45,600 bases of DNA from assembly GCA_000434635.1 (NCBI GenBank), contig HF988135.1:26448-72047 (forward strand), in the 5' to 3' direction. Origin of the DNA: Firmicutes bacterium CAG:110. Its GTDB lineage: Bacteria > Bacillota > Clostridia > Oscillospirales > Oscillospiraceae. Position 1 is the first letter of the stretch; every line of letters begins with the position of its first letter. Positions 13,426 to 32,886 of this stretch are shown one piece after another. Both the position numbers and the translations under genes were made by a program. Below the pieces are notes generated by a model that was given only the letters and a program-made list of their open reading frames with translations, made no database searches and had not been told where the DNA came from.

Positions 13426-13443
13426 GCCGCCGCCCCCCTTCGT

Positions 13444-14574: not shown

Positions 14575-14598
14575 TCCATTCCCTCTTTTCGGATACAA

Positions 14599-14605
14599 TG
14601 TCGAA
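14599..14605 (+). promoter_or_regulatory. Putative Spo0A box (TGTCGAA) over the predicted transcription start
   Basis: Exact match to the TGNCGAA consensus, 3 bp downstream of the -10 hexamer. The same heptamer occurs in the 32276-32304 promoter. Confidence 0.5.
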
Positions 14606-14608
14606 TGT

Positions 14609-14637
14609 ATTATACACCATTCCACGTCCTATTTCAA
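14609..14637 (-). promoter_or_regulatory. Sigma-A-type promoter for the downstream (Wzm/Wzt) unit
   Basis: Minus strand reads TTGAAA-17 bp-TATAAT, 34 bp upstream of ATG 14574. Confidence 0.8.
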
Positions 14638-14648
14638 CCACAAGCGCG

Positions 14649-14674
14649 AAAAAAGGCCGGGCAGCCAGCCCGGG
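14649..14674 (-). terminator. Putative intrinsic terminator ending the Wzx/Wzy unit
   Basis: Minus strand reads CCGGGC-TGGCT-GCCCGG, then CC and TTTTTT. Confidence 0.6.
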
Positions 14675-14704
14675 ACGGCGGAGATCAGCATCCCGCAGAA
14701 CTCA

Positions 14705-14871
14705 TACTGAACTCCAATTAAAATCTTTAGAAAAGATTTTAATTGCCCGAAGGGCAAGGAGTTCATACGAGACTTGTTTTGTGATTTCTTTCCTTATAAA
14801 TCACAAAACTGGCAGCGCCATCAGGCGATGCCTTCCTGATTGAAATCAAAGATTTTAATCAGGAAATAGTA
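14705..14871 (-). mobile_element. 167-bp structured MITE-like element, copy 1
   Basis: TAC...GTA ends flanked by TCA direct repeats (14702-14704 and 14872-14874). Both ends read TACT-N8-ATTAAAATCTTT inward. Contains five hairpins. Confidence 0.78.
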
Positions 14872-16263
14872 TCAGATCAATACTTTCCGCTTTCTGATTC
14901 GCAAAAGCTCCCATAGGCCAATGGCCGCGCCCAGTCCCCAGCGCGCCAGCCACAGTCCATCCGCCGCCACGGACGCCACGGCCACAGCGGCGAACACCGC
15001 CGCGTACCCGACCCACATTTTCAGCGGGAAGGGGTATTCTTTCCCGCCCAGAGCGAAACGGACGTACAGATAGTGCAGCGTCAGCTGCAAACTGTGGGAA
15101 ATCAGCGTCGCCACCGCCGCGCCGGCCATGCCGATGCGCAGGATCAGCAGGTAATTCAGCCCCACATTTATCAGCGACGACACAATAGTGATGATCGAGA
15201 CGACCTTGGTCTTTTTGTGGTAATACTCGAAATTCACCGGGAAGGTACACAGGAAATTGGTGTAGTAGCTGGACACAAAAATGGGAATGAGCATGGTGCT
15301 TCCCCAGAAATCCCGGGAAACGTAGACATAGCGGTACACTTCGCTGGCCAGCAGCACGAAGCCCACGGAAAGCACCGTGAAAAGCTCCAGAAAATTCCCC
15401 GCCTTTTCCCGCAGATTCTCCCGGTTGCCCTGCTTCATGTCCTCGAAGAAAAAGGGGCACCATGAATTGTTCAGGGCGGTGAACAGAGTGAACATGATGC
15501 CGCCGAAATTCAGCGCCGCGCCGTAGCAGCCCACCGTGGCCTCGTCCATCATCTGCTGGAGCATCACCTTGTCGCTCTGCCCCAGAATCAGGTCTGAAAG
15601 GTTGTAAAATACCGTCGGAATGGCAAGAACAATGCAGAATTTCCAATATTCCTTGTTGTAAAAGGTCTTCCCCTTCGCCAGAATCCAGATGCACACCGGA
15701 ATGCCCAGCACGCCGTAGGTCACGGCGATAGCGGAAATGCGGCCTAAGTAGTTGATCTGCTTGGGCAGCAGCAGAATCAGCACAATGGAGAGGATCAGGG
15801 TGGTCAGCGTCACCACAAGGGACATGGCCATGTTCCGCCCTGCCTTGAATTCGTAGACGAATTTGGTGTTCAGGAAGTTGACGCAGAAGGTGCCGAAGCC
15901 CTGAATGAGCATCAGCACGATCAAAAACCAGCTCAGCTTCAGCGCCCCGGAAATGGGGCCGATAAAGCACAGCACCAGTGCGCTGAAAATCAGATACACC
16001 AGCGTGGACAGGCTCATGGCCGAGGACTGGTAGCGCAGCTGGTCTCCCTCCGGGTACTCCACCCGGGCGTTGACCAGCGTCCCCTGGGTTTGCAGCGTGA
16101 ACACAATGGCGATCACCGCCACCCATGTGTTGTAAATTTGGGTAACGCCGTAACCGCTGGTTCCCAGCAGACGGGTAAACAGGGGCGCTGTGAATATGGA
16201 AATGCCTCTGAGCAAAACGGTGCTCAGAATGTTAAAAAAAGCAACCCGGTTTCGTCGATTCAT
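14872..16263 (-). CDS. wzx: Oligosaccharide flippase (Wzx/MOP family)
   Basis: About 12 hydrophobic segments; PLFTRLL..YG, SDKVML, VGCYGAA and LNYLLI..GMAGAAVAT patterns. Confidence 0.9.
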   Translation of the reverse strand: MNRRNRVAFFNILSTVLLRGISIFTAPLFTRLLGTSGYGVTQIYNTWVAVIAIVFTLQTQGTLVNARVEYPEGDQLRYQSSAMSLSTLVYLIFSALVLCFIGPISGALKLSWFLIVLMLIQGFGTFCVNFLNTKFVYEFKAGRNMAMSLVVTLTTLILSIVLILLLPKQINYLGRISAIAVTYGVLGIPVCIWILAKGKTFYNKEYWKFCIVLAIPTVFYNLSDLILGQSDKVMLQQMMDEATVGCYGAALNFGGIMFTLFTALNNSWCPFFFEDMKQGNRENLREKAGNFLELFTVLSVGFVLLASEVYRYVYVSRDFWGSTMLIPIFVSSYYTNFLCTFPVNFEYYHKKTKVVSIITIVSSLINVGLNYLLILRIGMAGAAVATLISHSLQLTLHYLYVRFALGGKEYPFPLKMWVGYAAVFAAVAVASVAADGLWLARWGLGAAIGLWELLRIRKRKVLI

Positions 16264-16266
16264 AGT

Positions 16267-17280
16267 TCACTCCGCGCTTTTTGCATCCGTTTTCCCGGGA
16301 CGCACCCCGTGGTAAAGCCCCCGCATGGGGCGGTACAATCCGGCGGCCAGCAGCAAATCCGTCACCCGCTCCTGCCTGCCAAACAGCGGGCTGGTCAGCA
16401 AAAAGGAAATATGCCTGCAAAGCGCCTTCCGGGACAGGCGGTATTCATCTGCAAATTTCTGCCGGGTATCCTTGTCCGCCAAATCCAGCGTCAGCAGATT
16501 GTAGGCGAGGGAACGCACCCGCAGATACCGCGCCGCATCCGCGATTCCCGGATAATTGTCCCGGATAAACGGGTAGACTTCTGCCGTATGTCTGGAAAAG
16601 TGGAAGGTTTTCTCCGAAACCGAGGACGAGGTGATGCTCCCCGGCCGGTGGTAATAATTGTAAACGGGGCAGGGCAGCATAGCCGCCTGTCCGGCATCCA
16701 GCGCAATGCGGTAGGTGGTAGGAACGTCCTCGCAGATCACCCCAAGGGGATAGCGGGCAGACGCAAAAAGGCTTCTATGATACAGCTTGTCCCATGCGGC
16801 GGAGTCGATGTTCTCCCAATGGAAAATCCGGCGCACTAGTTCTTCCCCGGAAATGACCTCCTCTTTTGGCGGGCACAGCCCCAGCGTCTTCTCCCCGGTC
16901 TCGCTGCCGACGTCCCAGCGCCCCGCGCAGACCAGACGGACGCCGTATTTTTCCATCAGCGCCATCATTTTCTCGTACATATCCGGCTCGATCCAGTCGT
17001 CGCTGTCCACGAAGGAAAGGTACTCCCCTGTCGCCGCGTCTATTCCGGCGTTCCGGGCGCTGCTCAGGCCGCCGTTTTTCTTGTGAATTGCTTTGACTCT
17101 GGCGTCCTGCCGGGCGTAGGCGTCGCAGATGGCGCCGCTGTTGTCCTTCGTGCCGTCGTCCACCAGAAGAATCTCCAGATTCTCATAGGTCTGCGCCAGA
17201 ATGGATTCCACGCACCGGGGAAGGTACTGCTCCACATTGTACACCGGAACAATGACGCTGATCCGCGGGTTCTGATTCAT
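16267..17280 (-). CDS. Family 2 glycosyltransferase
   Basis: ISVIVPVYNVEQYL, NGGLSSARN, FVDSDD and WDKLY motifs. Confidence 0.93.
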   Translation of the reverse strand: MNQNPRISVIVPVYNVEQYLPRCVESILAQTYENLEILLVDDGTKDNSGAICDAYARQDARVKAIHKKNGGLSSARNAGIDAATGEYLSFVDSDDWIEPDMYEKMMALMEKYGVRLVCAGRWDVGSETGEKTLGLCPPKEEVISGEELVRRIFHWENIDSAAWDKLYHRSLFASARYPLGVICEDVPTTYRIALDAGQAAMLPCPVYNYYHRPGSITSSSVSEKTFHFSRHTAEVYPFIRDNYPGIADAARYLRVRSLAYNLLTLDLADKDTRQKFADEYRLSRKALCRHISFLLTSPLFGRQERVTDLLLAAGLYRPMRGLYHGVRPGKTDAKSAE

Positions 17281-17298
17281 GCCGCATTCCTTCCTTTC

Positions 17299-18558
17299 TC
17301 ACCCTTCGGCGCTGTTTTTGGCAAGTCTTTCGTAAATTTCCAGCAAATCCGCCAGATTCTTTTCCGGGTCGTGGGTCACACCGGCGTGGGCGCGCGCCGC
17401 CGCGCCCATGGCTTCGGCCGCCTCGCCCTGTGCAAAAATGTTTTCCACATAAAACGCCAGCATATAGGGCGCGGTGGAGGGGTAGACCTCTCCTTCCAAC
17501 CTGTGGCGCATCATGGTCGTGACGCCGCCCACGTCCGCCGCCACACAGGGCACGCCCAGCAGCATGGCCTCCCCCAGAGAATTGGGGGAATTCTCAATGG
17601 TGGATGGCAGCACGAACACGTTCGCGTCAAGGAACGCCTGCTTCATTTCCTCCCCGCTGAGACTGCCCAGAAATTCGATCTTATCCTCCACGCCGTACTG
17701 CTCCGCCAGATCTGCCAGATATTTCTGGTAGTTGGTTCTGCGGAGCTTGCTCGCCGTCAGGAAGCTCTTTCCCGGCACCGCCAGCGTGGCATCCGGGTAG
17801 GTCTTGACGATCTGGCCAAAGGCTTCCAGCAGATAGTGAAAGCCCTTCACGGGATAGGCGCAGCTGGAAGCGAAAATCCGGTGTTTCCGGCAGCTGTCAT
17901 AGCGCCAAGTCCCCTGATAAAAGGGCTGGCGCAATGTCTCGTTGCAGAAATGGTACTTTGCTTCCGGATTGATCCGTCGGACGCAGGCCAAGTCCCAGTC
18001 CGTTCTGCCGATAATATGGCGCGCCTTTTGCAGGGCTTTTTCTTCCAGAAGCCCCCGAAGCACGAACTTTTCCCGCTGCTTCACGATATTGTCCCGCCGG
18101 ACAACATCACGGAAGGTGCTGCCCCGCTGAACCGACTCCGGAACGCCCTCGGCATAATGCCCGGCATAAACCGAACAAAGTCCCTGAATGCTGACCACCA
18201 GACTGTCCAGCCGCCCCGCCTTTTCCGCAGCGTTAACCATGGCAAGGGTGTGGCCGTACTCCGTCCCCCAGACGTGGATCACGTCCGGCTGGAAGGTATC
18301 CAGCTCCCCCCGGAACTGCGTTTCCAGCTCCGTCAGGTACACATAGGGCAGCCCCTCGGAAAAGAAAGCGTAGGAGCATCGTTCACTCACGCGCCCCTCG
18401 CCGCCGTCGCCGGGGCAGAGAATGCGGATATTCAGGTCTTCCCGTCCCAGCAGCCCTTCCAGCACGCTGTCAACCCACAGTCCGCCGCCGGTGGAACCGC
18501 CGCTTACGGCTTCTTTCACCTTTCCGGGCACCATATTGCACAGCCACAGCAGCTTCAT
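17299..18558 (-). CDS. Family 4 glycosyltransferase
   Basis: GGGLW, HVWGTE, KG and ENSPNSLGEAM motifs. Confidence 0.9.
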   Translation of the reverse strand: MKLLWLCNMVPGKVKEAVSGGSTGGGLWVDSVLEGLLGREDLNIRILCPGDGGEGRVSERCSYAFFSEGLPYVYLTELETQFRGELDTFQPDVIHVWGTEYGHTLAMVNAAEKAGRLDSLVVSIQGLCSVYAGHYAEGVPESVQRGSTFRDVVRRDNIVKQREKFVLRGLLEEKALQKARHIIGRTDWDLACVRRINPEAKYHFCNETLRQPFYQGTWRYDSCRKHRIFASSCAYPVKGFHYLLEAFGQIVKTYPDATLAVPGKSFLTASKLRRTNYQKYLADLAEQYGVEDKIEFLGSLSGEEMKQAFLDANVFVLPSTIENSPNSLGEAMLLGVPCVAADVGGVTTMMRHRLEGEVYPSTAPYMLAFYVENIFAQGEAAEAMGAAARAHAGVTHDPEKNLADLLEIYERLAKNSAEG

Positions 18559-19721
18559 TGCACCCCGTCCCTTTCAAGCATGGCCAGAATTTTCCCGGCC
18601 TGCGTCACGTTGTTTTTTTCTTTTAAGATAAATTCACGGGCTTTCATGCCCTTCTCAAGCAGGGCATCAGCGGGCTGGGCAAAAATCTGCCCCAGTTTTT
18701 CCGCAATGGCGTCAGCGGTTTCTTCCTCCAACAGGTACACGTAGGGGTGATATTCCTTGGGCATCCCCGGCAGAACCGTGGTCAGCACCGGGGTTCCCGT
18801 GGACATATACTCCATGGTCTTGGATGGGAAGGAGTATTTCACGTATTCTTCCCCCGTCGGCCTGGGGTTGACCAGCAGCGTCGCCGCCATCTCCCGCTCC
18901 ACGATTTCCGCGTTCAGCAGCATTCCGCCGTAGAAAATCCGGGAATCCTCCGCGGCGATCTGGGAAAGCTCCTGCACATAATCCCCGGGGCCATAAATTT
19001 CCAGCCGGGCGTCCGGCAGATCTGCCTTCCGGAAGCCCTTCACCAGATTTTCAAGCCCATATTGCTTGCTGACGCCCCCGGCGTACATGCACACCCGCGG
19101 GCTGGTCTTTCGCGCCAGAGACGGCTCCTGCCGCTCCATGGCGATGTCGCTGTGCCCCTCCAGAATCACGTGGGGCTTGCCCTCCGGATTCAGATAGTCG
19201 TTCATGGCCTGCGTCAGCAGCACATAGTCCGTGCAGTGACGGATGACAAAATTGGAAAGCTTCTTGGAAAAGGCGCTGCCCCCCAGCATATCCGGCAAGT
19301 CCGTCACAATGCCCACGCACCGTCTTCCCCGCAGCTTCGCCGCCAGCAGACCGGCCAGCGCCGTCGTCCTGTTCAGGCAGTCCACCACCACCGCCGAATC
19401 CTTCCCCGCAAGGCGCGCAGTGCGGAAAAAGGTTCCCACGCCCACAAATACAGCCTTGACAATGGAATTCCGGACGGCGGGAATATAGCGGTAGCACGCG
19501 CCGCCCTCGGTCTCCCGGGGCAGACGGACAAAGGACTTTTTCAGAACCTCCCGGTTCACCGGCGGATTCGCCACCACGTCCACCTTTGCCCCGGCGGCAA
19601 GCCCTTCAATGAGCAGGCGGTGATATTTCTGGGACTGAAAGGCGGGCTTCTGAGGGGCGTCCGCAAACAGCTGACGGTACACCCGGTCGGAGCAGGTCGT
19701 CACAGCGTAAATGATGTGCAT
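18555..19721 (-). CDS. Family 4 glycosyltransferase
   Basis: YAGG, LVNPR and SFPSKTMEYMSTG motifs. Confidence 0.88.
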   Translation of the reverse strand: MHIIYAVTTCSDRVYRQLFADAPQKPAFQSQKYHRLLIEGLAAGAKVDVVANPPVNREVLKKSFVRLPRETEGGACYRYIPAVRNSIVKAVFVGVGTFFRTARLAGKDSAVVVDCLNRTTALAGLLAAKLRGRRCVGIVTDLPDMLGGSAFSKKLSNFVIRHCTDYVLLTQAMNDYLNPEGKPHVILEGHSDIAMERQEPSLARKTSPRVCMYAGGVSKQYGLENLVKGFRKADLPDARLEIYGPGDYVQELSQIAAEDSRIFYGGMLLNAEIVEREMAATLLVNPRPTGEEYVKYSFPSKTMEYMSTGTPVLTTVLPGMPKEYHPYVYLLEEETADAIAEKLGQIFAQPADALLEKGMKAREFILKEKNNVTQAGKILAMLERDGVQ

Positions 19722-19724
19722 GGG

Positions 19725-20831
19725 TTAACCCCCATCTTTTTCAAAAATTGCAACGTGGGCTTTCGCCATGTTTTCAATGGTATAGGCGCGGATTTTTTCC
19801 AGAGAAGCCGTCCCCATTTTCTCCAAGTCCGAGGACAGAATCTCCTTCATCTTCCCGGCAAGGGCAGCATCGTCCCCCACAGGCACGATACTCCCGTTGA
19901 CGCCCTCCTCCACCAGCTCCAGACCGGCAACGCACCGGTCGGTGGTGATGACGGGCAGGCCGTAGGCCATGGCCTCGTTGATGACCAGCCCCCAGATGTC
20001 CTCCCGGGTGGGCAGGACGAACAAGTCCGCCGCCCTGTAATACCGGCTGAGGGCTTCCTTCTTCTGGAACCCCACAAAATGGACATTATCCAGCCCCAGA
20101 GACGCGCGCATCTGCAAATAGTCTTCTGTCGGCTCGCCGCCGACAATGTAAATCCCCACGTCCTTGTCAAGCGAGCAGGCGGCGTGCATCAGGATGTCGA
20201 AGCCCTTTCTGTGGATAAACTGGCCGATGGCCAGTACCATTCGCTTTTCCGGGACGCCCAGTTCCTCTTTCAGCGCCTGCTTTTCATCGGCGGAGGGAAC
20301 GGCAGGGAGGATATCCTTCTCAAACACGGAGGAGAAGGGATAAAAATGAATGCGGCTTTCCTCCGCCCCATAGTGGACGAGGAATTCCGTGGTGTACCGT
20401 CCCGAACTGAGCCACTGATCCGCCTTGCGCACCAGCGACTTCTTGAACAGATACTTTATCTTCCGCTCCTGCCGGATCAGGCCGCCGTCCACTTCCATGT
20501 AGAAGGGAATTTTTCTTCTGCGCAGCCACCGCATTGCAAGAATCGCCGTGGGCGAGGAATAGCCGCATATCACAATGGCGTCGTAGGGCTTTTTCAGCCA
20601 TTCGATCACATCCAGACACAGGTTTTCGTCCAGAAAATGGCCGACGCACCGCTTCAGCTGCACCGGGCGGTAAGCGCCACCCCCGGGAACGAACCAGTCG
20701 GCGCTGCGGTTTTTCTGATCCTCCACCCGGTCGGTAAACAGCACCGTCACGTCCATGCTTTTTGCCAGCTCATCGTAAAAATGGACCCGGTAGGGGGAAG
20801 CGTAGTTCGTCAGGAACAGCACTCGTTTCAT
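19725..20831 (-). CDS. Family 4 glycosyltransferase
   Basis: TNYASPYR, GQFIHRKG and EDIWGLVINEAM motifs. Start revised to ATG 20831. Confidence 0.9.
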   Translation of the reverse strand: MKRVLFLTNYASPYRVHFYDELAKSMDVTVLFTDRVEDQKNRSADWFVPGGGAYRPVQLKRCVGHFLDENLCLDVIEWLKKPYDAIVICGYSSPTAILAMRWLRRRKIPFYMEVDGGLIRQERKIKYLFKKSLVRKADQWLSSGRYTTEFLVHYGAEESRIHFYPFSSVFEKDILPAVPSADEKQALKEELGVPEKRMVLAIGQFIHRKGFDILMHAACSLDKDVGIYIVGGEPTEDYLQMRASLGLDNVHFVGFQKKEALSRYYRAADLFVLPTREDIWGLVINEAMAYGLPVITTDRCVAGLELVEEGVNGSIVPVGDDAALAGKMKEILSSDLEKMGTASLEKIRAYTIENMAKAHVAIFEKDGG

Positions 20832-20851
20832 ACCGTTGTAACCTCTCAATG

Positions 20852-21667
20852 TCAATCGCCGAAATCGATCTGCACGATCTGATGGCGGTTTTCCCGCTGA
20901 TCTTCCGGCGGGAGCTGCATGTAGTCTCCGTACAGCGTGGTCAGAAACTTGTCGTACTCCGCCGGCGCTTTGAAGGTTTCTCCTTCAAAGGTCACGTCCG
21001 TCAGCGCCTGACACCACGCTTTCTCGTAGGCGTCCGGCTTCGTCATGGCGCTCTGCTCGCAGACATAGCCGTTTTCCGGCAGTGCCGTCGCAAGCGCGTC
21101 ATACGCTTTTGCAAGGCTTTCCTGATCGGCAAACAGCGCCCGCGCCTGATAGTATAGGTAGCCAATCCGCTTTTTCCAGAGGATTTTCTCATTCTCCCGC
21201 CAAGGCTGATAATGGGATTTCATCAGCTTTGTCCGGTAGATTTTCAGCAAACGCCCCGCCGTTTCCTGCCGTTCTCCTACATCCAGGGACACGGCGTCGT
21301 AGGGAAAAATGTCCACATAGAAGCCGTTTTCTTCTAATCTGTGGGACTTGGCCTCCAAGTACAGCGTGCCGCGCTTGCGCACCTTGCCGAAGGGCAGGGC
21401 GTAGTTGGGGTCTGTGTACCAGCTCTGCCAGCAGTATTCCGGTTTCAGTTTCTCCGGGGCGATGCGGCAGAATTTCTCATAATTCTCCCGCAGCATTCCC
21501 ACGTCCATGTCGTCGTCCCACGGAATGAACCCCTGATGGCGCACCGCGCCCAGAAGGGTGCCGCAGGTGAGAAAATAGGGAATGTCGTTTTCCTCGCACA
21601 CCCGGCGGATCTCCTTTGCAATTTCCAGCTGGGTCAGCTGTACCTTTCTCAGCAGTTCCCGTTCCAT
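20852..21667 (-). CDS. licD: LicD-family phosphotransferase (CDP-choline or CDP-alditol donor)
   Basis: GTLLGAVRHQGFIPWDDDMD, VDIFPYD and YGDYMQLPP motifs. Confidence 0.92.
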   Translation of the reverse strand: MERELLRKVQLTQLEIAKEIRRVCEENDIPYFLTCGTLLGAVRHQGFIPWDDDMDVGMLRENYEKFCRIAPEKLKPEYCWQSWYTDPNYALPFGKVRKRGTLYLEAKSHRLEENGFYVDIFPYDAVSLDVGERQETAGRLLKIYRTKLMKSHYQPWRENEKILWKKRIGYLYYQARALFADQESLAKAYDALATALPENGYVCEQSAMTKPDAYEKAWCQALTDVTFEGETFKAPAEYDKFLTTLYGDYMQLPPEDQRENRHQIVQIDFGD

Positions 21668-21671
21668 ATGG

Positions 21672-22901
21672 TTACCCCCTTTTCATAAGCCGTTCCACCA
21701 GCGCCATGACCGGGAACAGCCATAAAAACACGTCCGCAATCAGATTCTGTGTGTTAAAGGACATGAACAGAATGACCACCAGCGCCAGATTCACCCATAT
21801 CTTCCGCTCCTTCCGCCACACCAGCGCGACCCAGCAGGCAATGTGGAGCAGCGCCGCCGGAATGCCGAAGGCGGAGAAAAGAATCAGCGTAGAGGTGGTA
21901 TTGTTGGCGGTGGCATACAGCACCTCCGCTATCTTCGCACCGAAGATGGGATGGTGCAGGAAAATGGAAATGTCCGTCACAACAGCGTCCATCCGCTCCA
22001 CCGAGGAATCCTGCCCGTTGACAAATTTGCCGATGGCCATGTCGTAAACTTCCCAGTAGAGGACGTTTTTCCGGGCAATGGAAACGCCCGCTATCACGGC
22101 GACGCACAAAATCAGCCCGACCGCCACGGCACATACTCGCTTGTCCCGATACCATTTCTTGTCAAAAAACAGCACGATCGCCAGCAGTCCCATTTCCGCG
22201 ACGCCGCCGGTGGCAAACGTGGACACCATCGTCGCGGCCAGAATGCCGTTGACCAGCCAGAGCTGCCACGGCCTTTTCCACTCGACCTCGTAATTGTTCA
22301 GATACAGCGCCGTAATCAGGAAAAACTGATAAACCCCCGGCTCCCGGAAAATGCCGAAATTCCGATTTTTGACATACGTATCCGGGACAATGGACAAAAA
22401 GAAATTGTGAAATTCAAAGCCCATGGAATTCCGGAACACCGGCACCGCGTAAGCACCCCTATCCACGCCGATACGCAGGATGTACGCCGCCAGCACGGAA
22501 TACGCCCCCAGCACAGACAGAATCGCCACGTAATATTTGGCCGCATCCCGCAACGTAAGGAAATAAGACAAAAACACCGCCGTGAGCAGGCACAGCAGAA
22601 CACTGAAATACATCAGCTGCCAGTCCCGCTTCACCAGCATGGGCAGCAGAAGCACCGCCGCCGCGATTCCGGCGACAATCATCCTCCGGTCTTTCAGAAT
22701 TTGGAACAGATTTCTCCGGTTGGTGATCAGGAAGGCCGCGCCCAGCAGGCAGATCACGCCCAGCATGAGAAACTGCGCCTTTTCAAAGCCGATCACCGCC
22801 GTGGTGAACATGCTGTCCCGCGCCAGAAAAAGCATGGCCGTGAAAAACGCGGCGAAGGCAATTTTTGTCCCACGGCTGTCCGGGAAGGGATAATGGGTCA
22901 T
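21672..22901 (-). CDS. Polytopic membrane protein, probable Wzy polymerase or O-antigen-ligase family
   Basis: About 11-12 hydrophobic segments with RNFGIFREPG, STFATGG, SSVER and HPIFG. Start revised to 22901 (ATGA overlap). Confidence 0.78.
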   Translation of the reverse strand: MTHYPFPDSRGTKIAFAAFFTAMLFLARDSMFTTAVIGFEKAQFLMLGVICLLGAAFLITNRRNLFQILKDRRMIVAGIAAAVLLLPMLVKRDWQLMYFSVLLCLLTAVFLSYFLTLRDAAKYYVAILSVLGAYSVLAAYILRIGVDRGAYAVPVFRNSMGFEFHNFFLSIVPDTYVKNRNFGIFREPGVYQFFLITALYLNNYEVEWKRPWQLWLVNGILAATMVSTFATGGVAEMGLLAIVLFFDKKWYRDKRVCAVAVGLILCVAVIAGVSIARKNVLYWEVYDMAIGKFVNGQDSSVERMDAVVTDISIFLHHPIFGAKIAEVLYATANNTTSTLILFSAFGIPAALLHIACWVALVWRKERKIWVNLALVVILFMSFNTQNLIADVFLWLFPVMALVERLMKRG

Positions 22902-24007: not shown

Positions 24008-24092
24008 GCGTCTCGCCTCCCGATGTTGTGAAATTTTCCGGCTGTTTCATCATATCCAGAAAAAACAGCGCAATTTGTCGGCGTCTGGCTTC

Positions 24093-25277: not shown

Positions 25278-25278
25278 G

Positions 25279-26478
25279 TCAAACCACCTCAAAGAATGTA
25301 TCCGGCTTTTTCGGGTCAAAGCACTCGTTTGCCCACATGAGCGTCACAAGATCGTCCGTTTCGCTCAGGTTGATAATGTTGTGGGTATAGCCCGGCAGCA
25401 TGTGGACGGCTTCGATTTTCTCTCCGGAAACTTCAAAATTCAGCACTTCCCCGGTGCCGACCTTCCGCTGCTGGATCAGGCCGTGACCGGATACTACGAT
25501 GAAAAATTCCCACTTGGTGTTGTGCCAGTGCTGTCCCTTGGTCACGCCGGGACGGCTGATGTTCACGCTGAACTGGCCGCAGCTCGCCGTTTTCAGCAGC
25601 TCCGTGAAGCTGCCCCGGGCGTCAACGTTCATTTTCAGGGGGAACGCCGCCTTTTCCCTGGGCAGATAGGAAAGATACGTAGAATACAGCTTTTTCGCGA
25701 AGCTGCCTGCCGGAATTTCCGGCATCAGCAGGGTTTCCGGCTGCGCCTTGAAGCTGTCCAGCAGCGCTACGATCTGCCCCAGAGTCGCCCGGTGGGTGAC
25801 GGGCGCGGCGCAGTAGCGCCCGGACGCCGTCAGAACCGTGTTCACACCGTCAAACTCGCAGTGATGCTCTCTGCCCTCCAGCGCTGCGATCATCTCGTCC
25901 ACCAGATCGTCGATGTACAGCAGCTCCAGCTCCACGCCGGGGTCGTTCACCGTGATGGGCAGGTCATGGGCATAGTTGTGGCAGAAGGTGGCTACGGCGG
26001 AATTGTAGTTGGGACGGCACCATTTTCCGAACAGGTTGGGGAAGCGGTACACCAGCACTTTCGCCCCGGTTTCGGCGGCATAGGAGAAAAACAGCTCCTC
26101 CCCCGCTTTTTTGCTCCTGCCGTACTCACTGCCCGCATAGCGCCCCACCATGGTCGCCTGAATGGAGGACGACAGCATTACGGGGCAGGTGTTATGGTAT
26201 TTTTTCAGCGTGTCCAGCAGCGTGGAAGCAAAGCCGAAATTTCCCTGCATGAACTCTTCCTGATTCTTCGGGCGGTTGACGCCGGCAAGATTGAACACGA
26301 AGTCCGCCTTCCGGCAGGCCGTTTCCAGCAGCGCCGGGTCGGAGTCGATGTCGTAGAGGTACAGCTCCCCCACCGTAAGTCCCGGATGGGTCTTGTCACG
26401 GCCGTCCCGGATGCACTCCAGCGCCGCCGTCAGGTTTTTGCCCACAAATCCGGCCGCACCGGTAATCAGAATGTTCAT
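25279..26478 (-). CDS. fnlB: Bifunctional reductase/epimerase with C-terminal cupin (FnlB/WbjC/CapF)
   Basis: TGAAGFVG, LAGVNRP, YGRSK, NLFGKWCRPNYNS and KGQHWHNTKWE motifs. Confidence 0.92.
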   Translation of the reverse strand: MNILITGAAGFVGKNLTAALECIRDGRDKTHPGLTVGELYLYDIDSDPALLETACRKADFVFNLAGVNRPKNQEEFMQGNFGFASTLLDTLKKYHNTCPVMLSSSIQATMVGRYAGSEYGRSKKAGEELFFSYAAETGAKVLVYRFPNLFGKWCRPNYNSAVATFCHNYAHDLPITVNDPGVELELLYIDDLVDEMIAALEGREHHCEFDGVNTVLTASGRYCAAPVTHRATLGQIVALLDSFKAQPETLLMPEIPAGSFAKKLYSTYLSYLPREKAAFPLKMNVDARGSFTELLKTASCGQFSVNISRPGVTKGQHWHNTKWEFFIVVSGHGLIQQRKVGTGEVLNFEVSGEKIEAVHMLPGYTHNIINLSETDDLVTLMWANECFDPKKPDTFFEVV

Positions 26479-26495
26479 GCCAGCTCACCCTTCCG

Positions 26496-27542
26496 TTATT
26501 TATTCTTCATGGCTTCCAGTTCTTCCCGGATGTAGCTCAGGCTCAGCAGCTTCTGCTGCACCTGCTCCACGTTCAGCAGCTCCGTGTTGTTGCTGTTGAA
26601 CTCCGTGAGGACGTTGCGCTGGGTGTCGCCGTCCTTGAAATATTTGTCGTAGTTTAAGTCCCGCTTGTCGCAGGGGACGCGGTAGAAATTGCCCAGATCG
26701 ATAGCGTGGGCACATTCCTCATTGGTCAGCAGTGTCTCGTACATCTTTTCGCCGTGGCGGATGCCGATGACCTTGATCTCGTGGCCGGGGGCAAACAGGC
26801 CGGTGACGGCTTTTGCCAGTGTCTCAATGGTGCACGCCGGGGCTTTCTGCACCAGAATGTCCCCGCTGACGCCGTTCTGGAAAGCGAACAGCACCAAGTC
26901 CACCGCTTCCTCCAGAGACATGATGAACCGGGTCATGTTCGGCTCGGTGATGGTGATGGGGTTGCCCGCCTTGATCTGATCGATCCACAGCGGAATGACG
27001 CTGCCCCGGGAACACATGACGTTTCCGTAGCGGGTGCAGCAGATTTTGGTCTTTTCCGGAGAAACCGTCCGGGATTTGGCGACAATGACCTTCTCCATCA
27101 TGGCCTTGGAGGTACCCATGGCGTTGACGGGATAGGCGGCCTTGTCCGTGGACAGGCAGATGACGGCCTTGACCCCTGCGTCAATGGCGGCGGTCAGCAC
27201 GTTGTCGGTTCCGAACACGTTGGTTTTCACCGCCTCCATGGGGAAAAACTCACAGGACGGCACCTGTTTGAGGGCGGCGGCATGAAAGATGTAATCTACG
27301 CCGTGCATGGCGTTCTTCACGGAAGCGAGATCCCGGACATCGCCGATGAAGAATTTGATCTTCCCAGCCGCTTCCGGCATTTTCGCCTGAAACTCATGGC
27401 GCATGTCGTCCTGTTTCTTCTCGTCCCGTGAGAAAATCCGGATTTCCCGGATATCCGTGTCCAGGAAGCGGTTCAGCACCGCGTTTCCGAAGGAACCGGT
27501 ACCGCCGGTGATCATCAGCGTTTTGTTGGCAAAAATACTCAT
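26496..27542 (-). CDS. fnlA: UDP-GlcNAc 4,6-dehydratase/5-epimerase (FnlA/WbjB/CapE)
   Basis: TGGTGSFG, FSRDEKKQDDMR, HAAALKQVPSCEFFP and LSTDKAAYP motifs. Confidence 0.93.
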   Translation of the reverse strand: MSIFANKTLMITGGTGSFGNAVLNRFLDTDIREIRIFSRDEKKQDDMRHEFQAKMPEAAGKIKFFIGDVRDLASVKNAMHGVDYIFHAAALKQVPSCEFFPMEAVKTNVFGTDNVLTAAIDAGVKAVICLSTDKAAYPVNAMGTSKAMMEKVIVAKSRTVSPEKTKICCTRYGNVMCSRGSVIPLWIDQIKAGNPITITEPNMTRFIMSLEEAVDLVLFAFQNGVSGDILVQKAPACTIETLAKAVTGLFAPGHEIKVIGIRHGEKMYETLLTNEECAHAIDLGNFYRVPCDKRDLNYDKYFKDGDTQRNVLTEFNSNNTELLNVEQVQQKLLSLSYIREELEAMKNK

Positions 27543-28777
27543 AATTCATTCTCCTCCCCTGTTTCCGGGTGTAAAAGTTCCCGGAAAAGAGATACATATT
27601 TTCCCGTGCAAATTTCGGTGGTGTACTTTTGCAGATACAGCTCCCGGCATTTTCTGCGCATGTCCCGGGCTTCCTCCGGGTTGTCCCGCAGGAAACGGAT
27701 GGCCTTGGCTAATCGCTCGCTTTCGCCGTTGCGCACCCAGAGCCCCGCGCCGGACTGGATATCCCGGACGATGTCGCACTCGTCCATGATGGCGAGCAGG
27801 GGGGTGCCCTGCATCATATAGCTGTAGGTCTTGCTGGGGACGCAAAGCCCCGTCGCACCCTTTTCCAGAGAAATCAGTGCGCAGTCGCTCACCGCCAGCG
27901 CGTCCTGAAAGTCCTGACCATGAAGGAAGCTGTGAATCCGGACATTCTCAATGCTCTCCTGAGCGATGATCTCTCGCAGCTTCTCCATTTTATTGCCGTG
28001 TCCGGCAAAGAGGAAGAAAACGTCCTTCTCCTCCCGCAGCGCCCGGATAGCGCCCAGAATGGTGTCCATGTCCTGCATGGTTCCCATATTGCCGAAATAG
28101 GACACCACGAAGCGCCCCGCCGTCAACTCCCGGAACCGGTTTTCCTCCCGGTCGCGCAGGCCACCCTCGTCCCGGTACCAGTTGGGAATCACCGTCACAA
28201 GTTCGTCAACGGCGTTCCGGGTGCGGAGAATGCAGTTCTTCTGCTCCGACGACAGCGCCACCACCCGGTCTGCCCGGCGGAACACACATTTGTTGATGTG
28301 GTTCATCAGCCTGCAGATCACGCTGCCTTCCCGGAGGGTGTTCGTCACCGTGGCCACCTCGGGATAGAGGTCGTAGGACACGAACACCAGCTTCGTACCG
28401 AACAGCGATTTTGCCCAAGAAGCAATCCACGGCAGAATCGGCGGGTTGGAGTACACCACCACCGCCCGGTATTTGCCGATCTCCGGCAGGTGCAGCAGCA
28501 CATGAAACGTAAAGGAAAAATAGTTGACGATCCGGCCAAGAAATCCCGCCCGGCCCGTCTGGATGTATTTCAGGCGGTGAATGTGGATGCCGTCCGCATC
28601 CTCCTTCGTGGGGACCTTCCCGCCCTCGGCGTATTCCCGTGGGTAGCCGCACAGCGCGCCCACGGAGAACCCGGCGTCCCGAAGCGCCAGCACCGTGTCA
28701 TAGGGCAGCTGGGCGGAGGAAATATATTCGGGATAGAAAAACTGGCACAAAAACAGGATATCCCGCTTCTTTTTCAA
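27539..28777 (-). CDS. Family 4 glycosyltransferase, WbuB-like (probable L-FucNAc transferase)
   Basis: QFFYPE, DLYPE, GNMGTMQ and VPSKTYSYM motifs; TTG start; directly upstream of fnlABC. Confidence 0.85.
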   Translation of the reverse strand: MKKKRDILFLCQFFYPEYISSAQLPYDTVLALRDAGFSVGALCGYPREYAEGGKVPTKEDADGIHIHRLKYIQTGRAGFLGRIVNYFSFTFHVLLHLPEIGKYRAVVVYSNPPILPWIASWAKSLFGTKLVFVSYDLYPEVATVTNTLREGSVICRLMNHINKCVFRRADRVVALSSEQKNCILRTRNAVDELVTVIPNWYRDEGGLRDREENRFRELTAGRFVVSYFGNMGTMQDMDTILGAIRALREEKDVFFLFAGHGNKMEKLREIIAQESIENVRIHSFLHGQDFQDALAVSDCALISLEKGATGLCVPSKTYSYMMQGTPLLAIMDECDIVRDIQSGAGLWVRNGESERLAKAIRFLRDNPEEARDMRRKCRELYLQKYTTEICTGKYVSLFRELLHPETGEENEL

Positions 28778-28805
28778 GCAACCGCCCTCTTTCGCTTCCT
28801 AAAAA

Positions 28806-29681
28806 TCAGGTTTTCTCCGTTTCCAGAATGGACTGCTCCAGCGTTTTTACGCAGTAATCCCGGCTGTACCGGCTCAGCGCAAAATCATAGCACAGGCTGC
28901 CAAAGGCCTTGTCCACCGCAGGCGAAAAAAACCGCAGCAGCTTCAGCGCCCAGGTAAAGCCCTTCACCATCAGGATGCCCTTTCCGTTGGCGTGGGCAAT
29001 CCAGTTGACCATGTCGCTGGTGTTGGTGTATTCGTTGTTCTGGGGGCAGAATATGCCCGCCGCCTCGTCGTCAATGAGCAGCCGGACAAATTCCGTCAGA
29101 TTCTCAATATACAGCATGGAACGCTGGTTGGAAACGTAAGGAAAAACCGGCAATTTTTTCGCCAGCTTCGCCATGGTCACGTAATTGCCCTTGCAGCCCT
29201 TGCCGTAGATCATGGGCGGGCGGAGAATTGCGACCTTGAAGCTGTCGTCCGCCAACGCCTGCAAATCCGCTTCCGCTCTGGCTTTGCTGACGCCGTAGTT
29301 GTCCGCAGGATGCAGCGGCGTGTTCTTCGTGATGACGACCGTTTTGCCGATGGGCGCAGTCAGGCCGTAAACGCTCTCCGAGCTCATAAACAGGAACTGA
29401 CCCACACCGTCGGCCTTGGCTTTTTCGGCAGTCCGCACCGCGAGAATGTGGTTGACCTGATCGTACAGGCCAGAGCTAGCCGGGTCGTTTTTGCTGTCCG
29501 GCTGATGCACCAGCCCCGCTACGTGGAACAACGCGTCGTAGCCGCGGAAAGAGTGGCTCTCCCAATCGGTGCCGCGCATATCCAGCGAATCCACCCGGTA
29601 GTTTTCCGGCCACTTCCCCAGATAGTTTTCCAGAGAAACCCCGATATAGCTTCCGGCGCCGGTGATGAGAATGTTCTTCAT
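28806..29681 (-). CDS. NAD-dependent epimerase/reductase (extended SDR, CapN/WbpV-like)
   Basis: TGAGSYIG, SSESVYG, YGVSK and RPPMIYG motifs. Confidence 0.88.
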   Translation of the reverse strand: MKNILITGAGSYIGVSLENYLGKWPENYRVDSLDMRGTDWESHSFRGYDALFHVAGLVHQPDSKNDPASSGLYDQVNHILAVRTAEKAKADGVGQFLFMSSESVYGLTAPIGKTVVITKNTPLHPADNYGVSKARAEADLQALADDSFKVAILRPPMIYGKGCKGNYVTMAKLAKKLPVFPYVSNQRSMLYIENLTEFVRLLIDDEAAGIFCPQNNEYTNTSDMVNWIAHANGKGILMVKGFTWALKLLRFFSPAVDKAFGSLCYDFALSRYSRDYCVKTLEQSILETEKT

Positions 29682-30292
29682 TCTTTCTTCTCCTTTTCCA
29701 GCTGGCCGGTGCCGCCTTCCACCACGCCGTCATGCTTCAGCACGGAAACGATGGTGCCGAAAAAGCATTTGCAGTCAAAGAGGAAGCTCAGTTTTTCCAC
29801 ATATTCCCCGTCGAACCGGGCCTTTACCTCAATGGGCAGTTCGTCCCGCCCGTTGATCTGCGCCCAGCCCGTCAGGCCGGGGCGCACGTCGTTGGCGCCG
29901 TATTTGTCCCGCTCGGCAATCAGGTCAAACTGATTCCACAGGGCAGGCCGGGGGCCGATGATGGACATTTTCCCCGTGAAAATCTGAAAGATCTGGGGCA
30001 GCTCGTCCAGGGATGACTTCCGCAGAAATTTCCCCACCTTCGTGATATACTGCTCCGGGTTTTCCAGCAGATGGGTGGGGGTGTCCTTGGGGGTGTCCAT
30101 TTTCATGGTGCGGAATTTCATGATGGAAAAATGGGTCTTGTGAATGCCTACCCGCTTCTGGCGGAACAGCACCGGGCCGGGGTCGTCGATCTTGATGGCG
30201 ACGGCAATGATCAGCAGCAGCGGCGACAATATCACGATGGCGCAGCCGGACAGGATAATATCCAGCAGGCGTTTGAAAAACGTTCGGTACAT
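29678..30292 (-). CDS. Initiating phosphoglycosyl transferase (bacterial sugar transferase)
   Basis: KRLLDI, KFRTM, SLDELPQ, MSIIGPRP and RPGLTGWAQINGR motifs. Confidence 0.93.
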   Translation of the reverse strand: MYRTFFKRLLDIILSGCAIVILSPLLLIIAVAIKIDDPGPVLFRQKRVGIHKTHFSIMKFRTMKMDTPKDTPTHLLENPEQYITKVGKFLRKSSLDELPQIFQIFTGKMSIIGPRPALWNQFDLIAERDKYGANDVRPGLTGWAQINGRDELPIEVKARFDGEYVEKLSFLFDCKCFFGTIVSVLKHDGVVEGGTGQLEKEKKE

Positions 30293-30325
30293 TCCGCTTT
30301 CCTCATTTTCTCTTATTTCGTTTGG

Positions 30326-32203
30326 TCAGACCTTACACTCGCGTTTGTAAGTAGGCACGATCTCCGCGACGATGTCCTTGATATCTTCGCTTTCCGCCCG
30401 GCTGGCTTCGTCCAGCCGCTTCAGCTGCTGCTCCAGCAGCGCGTCGTCCATTTCGATGGGCTTGCCGATGTGAATGAGCTTGTTGGCAGTCTCCTGCATT
30501 CCTTCTTCCTTCATCAGCAGCTCCTCATAGAGCTTCTCGCCCGGTCTGAGACCGGTGTACTCAATCTTGATGTCCACATCCGGTTCGTAGCCGGACAGAC
30601 GGATCATGTTCCGCGCCATGGTGTCGATCTTCACCGGCTCGCCCATGTCCAAAATGAAAATCTCGCCGCCCTTGGCATAGTATCCCGCCTGCAGCACCAG
30701 ACTCACCGCCTCGGGGATGGTCATAAAATACCGGATGATGTCGGGATGGGTGACGGTCACGGGGCCGCCGGCCTCGATCTGCTTCTTAAAAAGCGGGATG
30801 ACGCTGCCGTTGCTGCCCAGAACATTACCGAAGCGCACCGCCACGAATTCCGTTTTGGACTCCCGGTTCATCATCTGTATCACCATCTCGCACAGACGCT
30901 TGGACGCACCCATGATGTTGGTGGGGTTGACGGCCTTGTCGGTGGATATCTGCACAAACCGCTTGACGCCGTACTCCGCGGCGGCCTTCGCCAGCTTGTA
31001 GGTGCCGATGACGTTGTTCTTGATGGCCTCGTTGGGGCTTTCCTCCATCAGCGGAACGTGCTTATGGGCCGCAGCGTGGAACACAAGCTCCGGCCGGTAA
31101 GTTTCCATCACATGGTTCAGCCGGACGGCGTCACGGACAGAGCCGATGATGACCTCCAGATTCAGTTCCGGATGGGTGCGGCGCAGCTCCATTTGAATAT
31201 CATAGGCATTATTTTCGTAAATATCCAGAATAATAAGCTGCTTCGGCTTCGCATGGGCGATCTGACGGCACAGCTCGCTGCCGATGCTCCCGCCGCCGCC
31301 GGTGACCAGCACCACCTTGCCGGAAATATAGCCCACAATTTCATCCAAATTGACCTTGATGGGTTCCCGGCCCAGCAGGTCCTGGGGATCGACCTTGCGC
31401 AGCTTGCTGACGCTGACCTCTCCGTTGACCATCTGGAAAATGCCGGGAAGCATCTGTACCTCGCAGCCGGTGGTGGCACAGATGTCCAGAATTTCCTTCC
31501 GGGACTTTGCGGTACAGTTGGGAATGGCGAAGATGATCTTGCTGATCTTGTATTTTTTCACAGCCGTGGCAATGTCCTGACGGCCGCCCACAATGGGAAC
31601 GCCGCACAGCTGCTTGTTCCATTTCACCGGGTTGTCGTCAATGACGCAGGACAGGTGATCCTGAATATGGTCGCTGTTGGTAAATTCCACAGCCAGCGCC
31701 CGTCCGGCGTCGCCCGCGCCGATCAGCATGACGTTTTTCACGCCGTTGGCATGGGTGATGTGGCTGATGCGCCGCTGCGCCGTCCGGAGCAGCCGGTAGG
31801 AGAACCGGATGGCCACGGTGCTGACGAAGCTGAACAGGAAGCCCACCACCATGCTGGAACGGGGCATCAGATTGCCGTCAAAGTGGAATACCAGCACGCC
31901 GATCACGCCCAGCACCACATATGCACCAGTAATGCGGAACACCTCCGGCGTACTGACAAAGGCCCAGATGGAGTTGTACAGCCGGAAAATCCAGAATACC
32001 AGAAGCGTGATCACGCACCATAGGCCGATGGCGGACAGGAAGCCCTCCATATGGACGGGGCGAATTTCGGCAAAGGAAAAATCATACCGGAACCACAGCC
32101 CCAGAAAGAAGGAGACGACAGTAGCAAGCACGTCCAGCATCATAATAAAAATGACCTTCGGCGCCATGCCCAGATTCAGTTTCATCGGCTTTCGGGAACC
32201 CAT
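30326..32203 (-). CDS. capD: Membrane-anchored UDP-GlcNAc 4,6-dehydratase (CapD/WbpM/PglF family)
   Basis: Four N-terminal TM helices, then IGAGDAG, DLLGR, TGGGGSIGSELCRQ, HAAAHKHVP and STDKAVNP. Start revised to ATG 32203 so that it lies downstream of the promoter; exact start uncertain. Confidence 0.92.
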   Translation of the reverse strand: MGSRKPMKLNLGMAPKVIFIMMLDVLATVVSFFLGLWFRYDFSFAEIRPVHMEGFLSAIGLWCVITLLVFWIFRLYNSIWAFVSTPEVFRITGAYVVLGVIGVLVFHFDGNLMPRSSMVVGFLFSFVSTVAIRFSYRLLRTAQRRISHITHANGVKNVMLIGAGDAGRALAVEFTNSDHIQDHLSCVIDDNPVKWNKQLCGVPIVGGRQDIATAVKKYKISKIIFAIPNCTAKSRKEILDICATTGCEVQMLPGIFQMVNGEVSVSKLRKVDPQDLLGREPIKVNLDEIVGYISGKVVLVTGGGGSIGSELCRQIAHAKPKQLIILDIYENNAYDIQMELRRTHPELNLEVIIGSVRDAVRLNHVMETYRPELVFHAAAHKHVPLMEESPNEAIKNNVIGTYKLAKAAAEYGVKRFVQISTDKAVNPTNIMGASKRLCEMVIQMMNRESKTEFVAVRFGNVLGSNGSVIPLFKKQIEAGGPVTVTHPDIIRYFMTIPEAVSLVLQAGYYAKGGEIFILDMGEPVKIDTMARNMIRLSGYEPDVDIKIEYTGLRPGEKLYEELLMKEEGMQETANKLIHIGKPIEMDDALLEQQLKRLDEASRAESEDIKDIVAEIVPTYKRECKV

Positions 32204-32275
32204 TTTGTTCACATCCTGTATTTCACCGCGGGCAGTTGTCCGCGGGTACTTTGTTTTGTCTGCATAGTTCATTTT

Positions 32276-32304
32276 ATTATAACACAATATGTCGAATACA
32301 GCAA
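32276..32304 (-). promoter_or_regulatory. Sigma-A-type promoter with extended -10 for the upstream polysaccharide unit
   Basis: Minus strand reads TTGCTG-17 bp-TATAAT, with TGn immediately before the -10. Confidence 0.75.
32290..32296 (+). promoter_or_regulatory. Putative Spo0A box (TGTCGAA) inside the promoter spacer
   Basis: Exact TGNCGAA match between the -35 and -10 hexamers. Confidence 0.5.
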
Positions 32305-32430
32305 GGGAAAGTTTTGCCGTTACAACATCTCCAGAGGACCATTTTTGCATGCATAGAAAAATGGCGCAACCATAATAGGCAGGGCGCATCAAACAATTAT
32401 CAGGCGCAGTGGGATCATGAACTGCATCTC

Positions 32431-32713
32431 TTGCCTCTCCCTTTGGGAGAGGTGGCTGATACTAGTTTTCAATAAAACGGTTAAAAACCGTTTTATTCGG
32501 CTGCTGTTTCAGCAGCCAGCGGCGTAGCCGCAAAAAACGTAAGTCCATACATTTCTCGCCGCCGCCGGCGGCCTGCGAAGGATTCGCAGGATAAAATGGT
32601 GTTAACCATTTTATCGAGAAATCGTATGAGCGAAGCGAAGACGGAGAGGGTAAGCAAGTCTGCAAGGCCCTCTCAGTCACCTGCGGTGACAGCTCTCCCA
32701 GAGGGAGAGCCAA
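32431..32713. repeat. Inverted pair of REP-like palindromic repeats; the left copy is interrupted by the 167-bp element
   Basis: Left copy with the insert removed reads TTGCCTCTCCCTTTGGGAGAGGTGGCTGAGCGAAGCGAAGACGGAGAGGG. The reverse complement of 32668-32713 reads TTGGCTCTCCCTCTGGGAGAGCTGTCACCGCAGGTGACTGAGAGGG. Confidence 0.8.
32460..32626 (+). mobile_element. 167-bp structured MITE-like element, copy 2
   Basis: TAC...GTA ends flanked by TGA direct repeats (32457-32459 and 32627-32629). About 40 bp imperfect terminal inverted repeats and six hairpins. Removing it plus one TGA restores the REP-like repeat. Confidence 0.82.
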
Positions 32714-32749
32714 GGGGCCGTACCTCGTTAATAGCATGTTTGCACAAGA

Positions 32750-32781
32750 AATGGAGCGTATCTGCACCGATACGCTCCATT
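32750..32781 (-). terminator. Hairpin, probable terminator downstream of rnc
   Basis: Perfect 13-bp stem AATGGAGCGTATC / GATACGCTCCATT with a 6-nt loop; the minus strand ends TTTCTTGT. Confidence 0.65.
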
Positions 32782-32886
32782 CGCTATTTTACGATTACCC
32801 ATCAAACCGGCAAGGGAGGTTTCTTAGGGTCTATCTGAAAACCGTCAACACGCCCAAACAGTGAAAGACCGCGTCGTTTCGACATT

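Follow-up and report, generated by a model that had tools for sequence, protein, structure and literature searches.

The closest described parallel to the repeats reported here is RUP of Streptococcus pneumoniae together with the insertion sequence IS630-Spn1: a Firmicutes miniature inverted-repeat transposable element (MITE) in the ~ 100–200 bp range which, in the passage that treats it, has no open reading frame (ORF), many intergenic copies and IS630-like ends. RUP is 107 bp long and targets TA, and IS630-Spn1 is thought to move it in trans (passage in PMC2229807). We compare it with two elements of 167 bp each, element 1 and element 2, found in a 45,600-nucleotide stretch of DNA from Firmicutes bacterium CAG:110 (contig HF988135.1, positions 26,448 to 72,047; the whole stretch is referred to as the window).

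For the wider IS630 family, the abstract on ISY100 (ISTcSa) reports a transposase that alone binds the terminal repeats via two helix-turn-helix (HTH) motifs and performs cut-and-paste transposition, with insertion almost exclusively into TA and duplication of TA. Three-bp variants exist within the IS630/Tc1/mariner super-group, since eukaryotic Fot elements of the same super-group have TAA and TAAA duplications in the passage on them (PMC7386202). Small, intergenic and very stably folded repeats, some affecting neighbouring mRNAs, are also described in the excerpts covering Correia/NEMIS, ERIC, CIR and BOX, most of which have no partner transposase known.

Elements 1 and 2 are, with high probability, MITEs of two related families, here called type A and type B, of an IS630-family insertion sequence. 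This reading follows from ends shared with the insertion sequence, a 3-bp TNA target duplication, dispersed copies, empty sites, and nesting of MITE and insertion sequence within each other. In contrast to RUP (107 bp, TA), the elements are 165–168 bp long and use TNA, a comparison made by description rather than by sequence and limited to what the passage on RUP states; instead of one long stem formed from the two ends, types A and B form an array of five to six short hairpins. The partner insertion sequence resembles ISY100, IS630 and Tc1/mariner elements in its length of ~ 1.1 kb, terminal inverted repeats, two N-terminal HTH domains and DDE_3 domain. Unlike ISY100, it duplicates 3-bp TNA (five of six copies from relatives and one from this genome) and, judging by its sequence, its transposase would need a −1 frameshift between orfA and orfB. 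CIR is described in its excerpt as two arms joined by a linker, as in type B. Unlike most of the Correia/NEMIS, ERIC, CIR and BOX repeats, those studied here have an identified partner, and several of their stems are explained as terminal repeats paired with inverted copies. We therefore place the repeat in a known class, that of MITEs belonging to an IS630-family insertion sequence, and not in a new one. The preliminary description of this DNA had proposed a new kind of element; its ends and 3-bp TNA duplication are instead those of an IS630-family DDE insertion sequence present in the same genome and genus.

Copies, ends and target sites

The genome containing the window (G000) comprises 2.50 Mb in 182 contigs and is 98.2% complete, the window being contig C168. 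The parts of the two elements are as follows.

14705..14871, minus strand: element 1, very probably a type A MITE copy, 167 bp
14872..14874, minus strand: left target duplication TGA of element 1, the stop codon of a 463-amino-acid flippase-like ORF (14872..16263)
14848..14871, minus strand: left terminal inverted repeat of element 1, TACTATTTCCTGATTAAAATCTTT
14705..14728, minus strand: right terminal inverted repeat of element 1
14702..14704, minus strand: right target duplication TGA of element 1
32460..32626, plus strand: element 2, very probably a type B MITE copy, 167 bp
32457..32459, plus strand: left target duplication TGA of element 2
32460..32480, plus strand: left terminal inverted repeat of element 2, TACTAGTTTTCAATAAAACGG
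32606..32626, plus strand: right terminal inverted repeat of element 2
32627..32629, plus strand: right target duplication TGA of element 2

Much of what had been read from the letters alone in the preliminary description was reproduced: both elements are 167 bp long, run from TACTA to GTA with TGA on either side, and carry an AAGTC motif (14771–14775, reverse complement, and 32541–32545). In both, a C precedes the left TGA and a G follows the right TGA. The empty site CTGAG reconstructed at that time holds for these two copies, but not across copies, where the target is TNA. By eye, 16 of 21 positions agree between the left and right repeats of element 2, rising to 17 of 21 where the right repeat has the commoner ending ...ATAGTA; for the type A terminal repeats the count is 17 of 24. 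ORFs of at least 40 amino acids overlap both elements; none is contained entirely within either, and no coding signal was seen in them.

A BLAST search of the genome returned 14 full-length type A copies, 93–100% identical apart from one at 80% that carries an insertion; element 1 shares 93–98% identity with 12 other full copies. Type B or B-like sequences were present in 10 copies (seven at 89–100%, one 121-bp deletion form and two at 74–75%), with element 2 98.8–99.4% identical to five other copies in the genome. Recurrence on this scale exceeds chance by far. No BLAST similarity was found between type A and type B. Partial copies were plentiful too, and numerous contigs terminate in 23–29 nt of element ends; contigs ending inside the elements indicate that these break the assembly, and the copy counts are therefore lower bounds. 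MITE lengths ranged from 165 to 168 bp across copies, 166–168 bp recurring in three subfamilies (type A, a type A subfamily of genome G043, and type B). The termini are imperfect inverted repeats of ~ 21–24 bp with the form TACTAnTTTC..AT.AAAA.

Flanking sequences vary among copies, and the 3 bp on either side of each copy agree. The duplication at 15 distinct type A sites was TGA/TGA in seven, TAA/TAA in five, TCA/TCA in one and imperfect in two; at 46 type B sites across genomes it was TGA/TGA in 40, TTA/TTA in four and imperfect in two. A perfect 3-bp TNA duplication was thus seen at 13/15 type A and 44/46 type B sites, and the range of duplications (TGA, TAA, TCA, TTA) defines the target as TNA, mostly with C or T before it. 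All four of these triplets occur among the seven copies of the G043 type A subfamily, which is without orientation bias.

Empty sites, a proposed check of mobility, were found in relatives, one orthologous and several paralogous. One type A copy, on contig C140, occupies a stop codon; the orthologous site is empty in genome G121 (contig C295), where flanks of 91–94% identity are separated by 14 bp instead of 183 and the TAA stop is in the same place. Element 2 lies inside another repeat, 'type C', whose two parts in the window are listed below.

32374..32456, plus strand: left part of the host repeat type C that holds element 2
32630..32806, plus strand: right part of type C

On three G121 contigs (C7, C249 and C71) the type C halves are contiguous and element 2 is absent, and a paralogous type C repeat on contig C122 of this genome reads ...GGTGGCTGAGCGAAGCG... 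with a single TGA. On a further G121 contig (C32), 47 bp stand in place of the whole 537-bp repeat nest around element 2. The empty sites indicate insertions of 166–167 bp plus 3 bp. Metagenome contigs (probably from DNA) in three of four runs pass directly from 32456 to 32627, omitting exactly 170 bp, and three letters at the junction fit either side; the junction sides are short (24–31 nt), so that these contigs probably represent paralogous repeats and support the empty site weakly. Dispersed copies, empty sites and target duplication together bear out the earlier view of the elements as non-autonomous and mobile.

The orthologous site of element 1 was rejected as an empty-site candidate, being occupied in G043 by a 332-bp composite, and G121 has no contiguous ortholog of it.

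G043 contig C59, 26801-27132: locus L098, ortholog of window 14702-14874, at the stop codon of the same flippase-like gene

The composite consists of a 167-bp type A-like copy carrying a nested ~ 168-bp MITE of a third family (ends AAGGAAGCTCTGATTAAATCG, ~ 30 copies in G043). Its type A-like part (positions 1–145) is 96–99% identical to other G043 copies and ~ 75–80% identical to element 1, which suggests either that one site was used repeatedly or that a master copy has been long-lived.

The smallest forms are mini-elements of 44–51 bp, in which two terminal repeats are joined directly and flanked by TNA, present at several loci. They are perfect or near-perfect palindromes (left+left, right+right or left+right); the 51-bp forms are an element 1-type left repeat fused straight to a right repeat. 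The flanks of the five named below agree only at C143 (TGA/TGA).

Mini-elements in this genome: C167 4018-4062; C145 9345-9389; C119 19118-19162; C142 3686-3736; C143 1876-1926; others

Type B is present in many species of the genus, and full-length matches were detected in at least 16 of 200 other genomes of the genus, a lower bound because two candidates per genome were scored. Type A-like matches were found in 3/24 same-genus genomes and 0/16 from other families of the order; metagenome-assembled genomes often lose repeats, and such absences carry little weight. An exact 34-nt type B stretch occurs in 40 stretches of public genome records, 19 of them from one metagenome-assembled genome, with records titled Faecousia sp., uncultured Oscillospiraceae, Clostridiales and similar. 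A literature search found no paper naming both Oscillospiraceae and miniature inverted-repeat transposable elements, nor, among the papers listed, one linking Faecousia with transposon terms.

The IS630-type partner insertion sequence

The preliminary description reported no transposase in the window, and this holds: the genome's IS630-type matches are confined to contigs C98, C9 and C145, and C168 has none. The longer, ORF-bearing elements with shared ends that it had also suggested looking for exist, in the form of an IS630-type insertion sequence of 1.1 kb.

Contig C98, 31-1146: partner insertion sequence, 1116 bp, ends TACTATTTCTTAATAAAACG... and ...TTAATTAAGAATTAGTA, flanks TTA/TTA
Autonomous elements with matching ends and duplication: C98 31-1146; loci L034, L035, L037, L038, L039 and L041

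The C98 copy lies within hairpin H5 of a type A MITE. Of a second copy, contig C9 has the left end (TGA followed by TACTAATTCTTAAT...) and the initial part, which a type A MITE interrupts, so that nesting was observed in both directions; in cutting the C9 transposase gene, the type A copy behaves as RUP does in the passage describing its insertion into insertion sequences, with inactivation of their transposase genes (PMC2229807).

Related species contributed six full-length copies (1110–1119 bp) and a further one of 1045 bp with an internal deletion. The full-length copies carry orfA and, behind an A AAA AAA run, orfB in the −1 frame; orfA has two HTH domains and orfB a DDE domain. Among the six copies with both flanks visible, five have a perfect 3-bp TNA duplication (TGA in one, TTA in two, TAA in two). 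The transposase matched the Pfam families DDE_3 (2.9e-16), HTH_33 and HTH_23. Against the NCBIfam IS630 model NF033545, orfB scored 128.5 bits (cut-off 100), orfA spans profile positions 2–129, and the C98 transposase reached 183.1 bits over positions 2–295. By reading, the translations show FQDEAGF, CCDGAAWH and NPIEQIW as candidate DDE motifs. The transposase was detected in 15 of the 201 genus genomes searched.

IS630-family elements are about 1.0–1.4 kb in size, and the copies of 1110–1119 bp with terminal inverted repeats agree with this. They depart from the 2-bp TA duplication of the family, their duplication being 3-bp TNA with T and A as its outer bases. Given the match to the IS630 model and the TNA duplication, we file the enzyme as an IS630-family transposase with a variant target duplication. 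A 3-bp TNA duplication is also made by IS5-family and PIF/Harbinger elements; the transposase here, although its duplication is alike, matches the IS630 model above cut-off and is not of the IS5 type. Our literature search, which ISfinder was outside of, found no bacterial IS630 element with a 3-bp or TNA duplication, and as the comparison does not extend to ISfinder we make no claim that the partner insertion sequence or its TNA duplication is undescribed.

From sequence, we infer that the transposase of this insertion sequence moves the MITEs, with cut-and-paste chemistry that would, by analogy, be like that of ISY100. A frameshift-fused OrfAB supplied in trans would bind the MITE ends, excise the MITE and paste it into TNA with 3-bp staggered cuts, after which gap repair would duplicate the TNA. 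Internal inverted copies of the terminal repeats would double the transposase-binding sites per end, and the MITEs may on that account compete well for transposase.

As an alternative, the elements could be moved as folded single-stranded DNA by a Y1 transposase of the IS200/IS605 or REP-RAYT type that recognises hairpins, and the subterminal hairpins here, together with the strong bias of type B orientation relative to its target, would suit such a route. Y1-type elements are not known to make a target duplication or to carry terminal inverted repeats; both are present here. PF01797 (Y1, IS200/IS605-type) had no match in this 98.2% complete genome, while control genomes were matched in 6 of 14 cases, and there is a DDE insertion sequence whose ends and duplication are those of the MITEs. 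We consider Y1-mediated transposition very improbable. The preliminary description had supposed recognition of the elements as folded single-stranded DNA or RNA; nothing requires it, as both strands fold equally and no Y1 transposase was found.

Hairpins and covariation

The predicted RNA folds are far more stable than those of shuffled sequences: −65.7 kcal/mol for element 1 (z = −8.84) and −76.5 kcal/mol for element 2 (z = −9.02), with 0/200 shuffles as good. The order of hairpins, given earlier as the same in both, proved similar and not identical. Element 1 consists of hairpins H1, H2 and H3, a 10-nt linker and one closing stem around two hairpins; element 2 has a 5-bp closing stem around three hairpins, a 9-nt linker, and a closing stem around three hairpins.

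Much of this structure amounts to terminal repeats paired with their own internal inverted copies, which form H1, H5 and the closing stems; the rest are short GC-rich palindromes. In element 1, positions 7–21 of the left repeat are the 5′ arm of H1 (14833–14865), paired with an adjacent inverted copy, while the right repeat pairs through its outer part (14708–14715) with an internal inverted copy (14758–14765) as the closing stem and supplies through its inner part the 3′ arm of H5. The outer part of the right repeat of element 2 likewise pairs with an internal inverted copy (32548–32557) in a closing stem.

Pairing is retained despite divergence, as previously claimed, with compensatory changes in both types. 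The type B comparison covered 31 distinct copies drawn from many genomes: standard pairs make up 98.4% of cells at the 55 predicted pairs, and 10/55 pairs have changed on both sides (reached by 0/500 shuffles; slid controls gave at most two). Between type A and the G043 subfamily (166–167 bp), 96.2% are paired and 9/42 pairs have changed on both sides, four of these in H1 and four among the eight closing-stem pairs, including the right terminal repeat. There, the change TGAACTCC -> TGATTCTC is mirrored in the internal partner. Across subfamilies as little as ~ 75% identical, the stems keep their pairing, and divergence is free in loops and linkers.

Stable folds, covariation and intergenic location are also what a family of structured non-coding RNA genes would show, the TGA and the ends then belonging to the RNA gene or its regulatory context and nothing being mobile. 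No Rfam family matches either element, as the comparison proposed earlier has now established: the window had no hits at gathering score and, at E ≤ 1, none on either element; one chance match (Vault, 16.5 bits) lies outside them. A type B covariance model scores element 2 on both strands (194 and 83 bits). The 3-bp flank differs among copies yet agrees on both sides of each, orthologous and paralogous sites are empty (insertion polymorphism), copies lie within a transposase gene and within other repeats, and the terminal repeats are common to an insertion sequence. A non-mobile RNA family is on these grounds extremely improbable. Equal length had been considered as the signature of one conserved RNA, which a 159-bp family in genome G013, with the same ends and folding into a single long stem, rules out.

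The covariance model test proposed earlier gave a divided result. A model built from type B only matches element 1 end to end (24.1 bits, E 2.5e-5), well placed against the next best unrelated window match (7.7 bits), and the two types are therefore related in layout. However, the opposite strand of element 1 does nearly as well (19.6 bits), and the relative orientation of the two elements as first described is thus weakly favoured. Opposite strands also fold equally well (−65.7 vs −68.6 kcal/mol for A, −76.5 vs −78.8 for B).

Arms could also be kept complementary by mutation itself, with template switching in quasi-palindromes as DNA is replicated copying one arm onto the other and no function involved. 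Nearly all changes go from one Watson-Crick pair to another with few G-U intermediates, the structure is equally good on both strands, and the terminal-repeat stems co-vary with internal inverted copies, all of which this process would produce. Divergent loops with paired stems are predicted both by template switching and by selection on master copies. We hold mutation alone to be possible but doubtful as the explanation. Most likely, the hairpins are kept up by the needs of continued spread, through doubled inverted binding sites or a favourable geometry of the ends; DNA-level palindrome correction may contribute, and a strand-specific RNA function is less likely.

Several points weigh against elements 1 and 2 being MITEs of this insertion sequence, or against the strength of the case. 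Type B orientation is one-sided relative to the asymmetric middle base, with TGA in 40 of its 46 sites and no perfect TCA duplication among them, a bias not obviously expected of a symmetric DDE transpososome. For the IS630-family elements known to date the duplication is TA, as in the ISY100 abstract and the passage on RUP and IS630-Spn1 and, by way of background, in the ISfinder family table; the elements here duplicate TNA. Nor does the assembly of this genome contain an intact transposase gene: an in-frame TAA and a frame change disrupt the C98 copy, a type A MITE interrupts the one on C9, and C145 has only a fragment. The assembled copies thus look defective, and any present-day mobility here would be conjectural. 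Finally, the counts of compensatory change reflect few events, and type A and the G043 subfamily represent a single split, so that the shuffle statistics overstate independence.

The assignment to IS630-derived MITEs matters mainly for annotation, as it explains repeats that break assemblies of an uncultured gut genus of Oscillospiraceae and strikes one candidate from the list of new RNA families. Transposon specialists may take an interest in the 3-bp TNA duplication of an IS630-type transposase, in the excess of copies on stop codons described below, and in terminal repeats that co-vary with internal inverted copies, which provide a natural data set on what a MITE needs to keep moving. Insertion differences between close relatives could serve as strain markers.

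Stop-codon sites and neighbouring sequences

Element 1 begins right behind the stop codon of the flippase-like ORF, and its left TGA is accordingly that stop codon, with 464 open codons in frame upstream. More generally, the duplication doubles as the stop of an ORF ≥ 80 codons long in 8/23 copies here and 13/37 type B sites in other genomes; the null, taken from 828/9989 TNA sites that lie outside long ORFs, is 8.3% (binomial p = 3.5e-4 and 4.6e-6). This is about a fourfold excess over a null that is crude and deliberately generous, and involves roughly one third of copies; sites in different genomes may be orthologous, and the tests therefore overstate independence. Stop-codon copies were co-oriented with the gene in 8/8 cases here and 11/13 in other genomes, the remaining 2/13 (TTA subfamily) abutting the stop codon of an opposite-strand gene.

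These counts bear on the idea that the elements, while MITEs, have been exapted, many copies also acting as structured 3′-untranslated-region RNA modules of the abutted gene. They would protect against 3′ exonucleases or attenuate transcripts, as proposed for REP, ERIC and Correia, and selection would keep hairpins and orientation. Such a role is consistent with the stop-codon excess over the null, the mostly co-oriented copies and hairpins kept through compensatory change; reviews, in the parts that address this, state that MITE transcripts commonly form stable stem-loops able to affect neighbouring mRNAs. However, equal folding of both strands means that fold stability cannot explain the orientation preference, and the G043 type A subfamily is free of orientation bias. 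Element 2, between an RNase III gene and a capsule-type gene (30326..32392, minus), is antisense to both and sits inside another repeat, and stop codons may be the sole gene-adjacent TNA sites where insertion is harmless. We regard exaptation of many copies as unlikely.

A broader combination of these ideas strikes us as improbable in its entirety. It would comprise a 3-bp-cutting (TNA) IS630-type clade for which every target is a stop codon on one strand, ~ 167-bp hairpin arrays (~ 16 helical turns) with terminal repeats co-evolving with their internal inverted copies, directional landing on stop codons that regenerates the stop, and structured 3′-untranslated-region modules, with structure selected for both transposition and a host RNA function.

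Around element 1, the window holds a minus-strand polysaccharide-synthesis cluster (12472–17280) with genes that, by names read from ORF translations, resemble a deacetylase, a glycosyltransferase, the flippase and another glycosyltransferase. Near element 2, positions 32253–32321, upstream of or at the start of the capsule-type gene, match many genus genomes at 82–95% and may be a conserved leader or an N-terminal coding part.

The ends of the type C repeat resemble inverted repeats (CCCCTTGCCTCTCCC...GGGAGAGCCAAGGGG), and the repeat includes two short hairpins. A regular expression for its core gave 15 copies on 14 contigs of this genome; many copies are also present in G121. Its ~ 46-nt double-hairpin core (window ~ 32660–32726) matches at 85–100% in many species of the genus whose genes are ~ 80% identical, and occurs as tandem 46-bp units on G007 contig C12. 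Contig C144 of this genome (~ 11311–11353) has a 43-bp type B right end attached to the same type C flank as in the window, across an identical junction sequence; possible reasons are copying of the whole composite and an assembly variant. Directly to the right of type C, where metagenome contig depth peaks (32793–32886), lies a further repeat with ends GGGTCTATCTGAAAACC... (window ~ 32815–32870), which is also nested in a type B-like copy elsewhere in this genome, forming a 330-bp composite (C182, 92201–92530).

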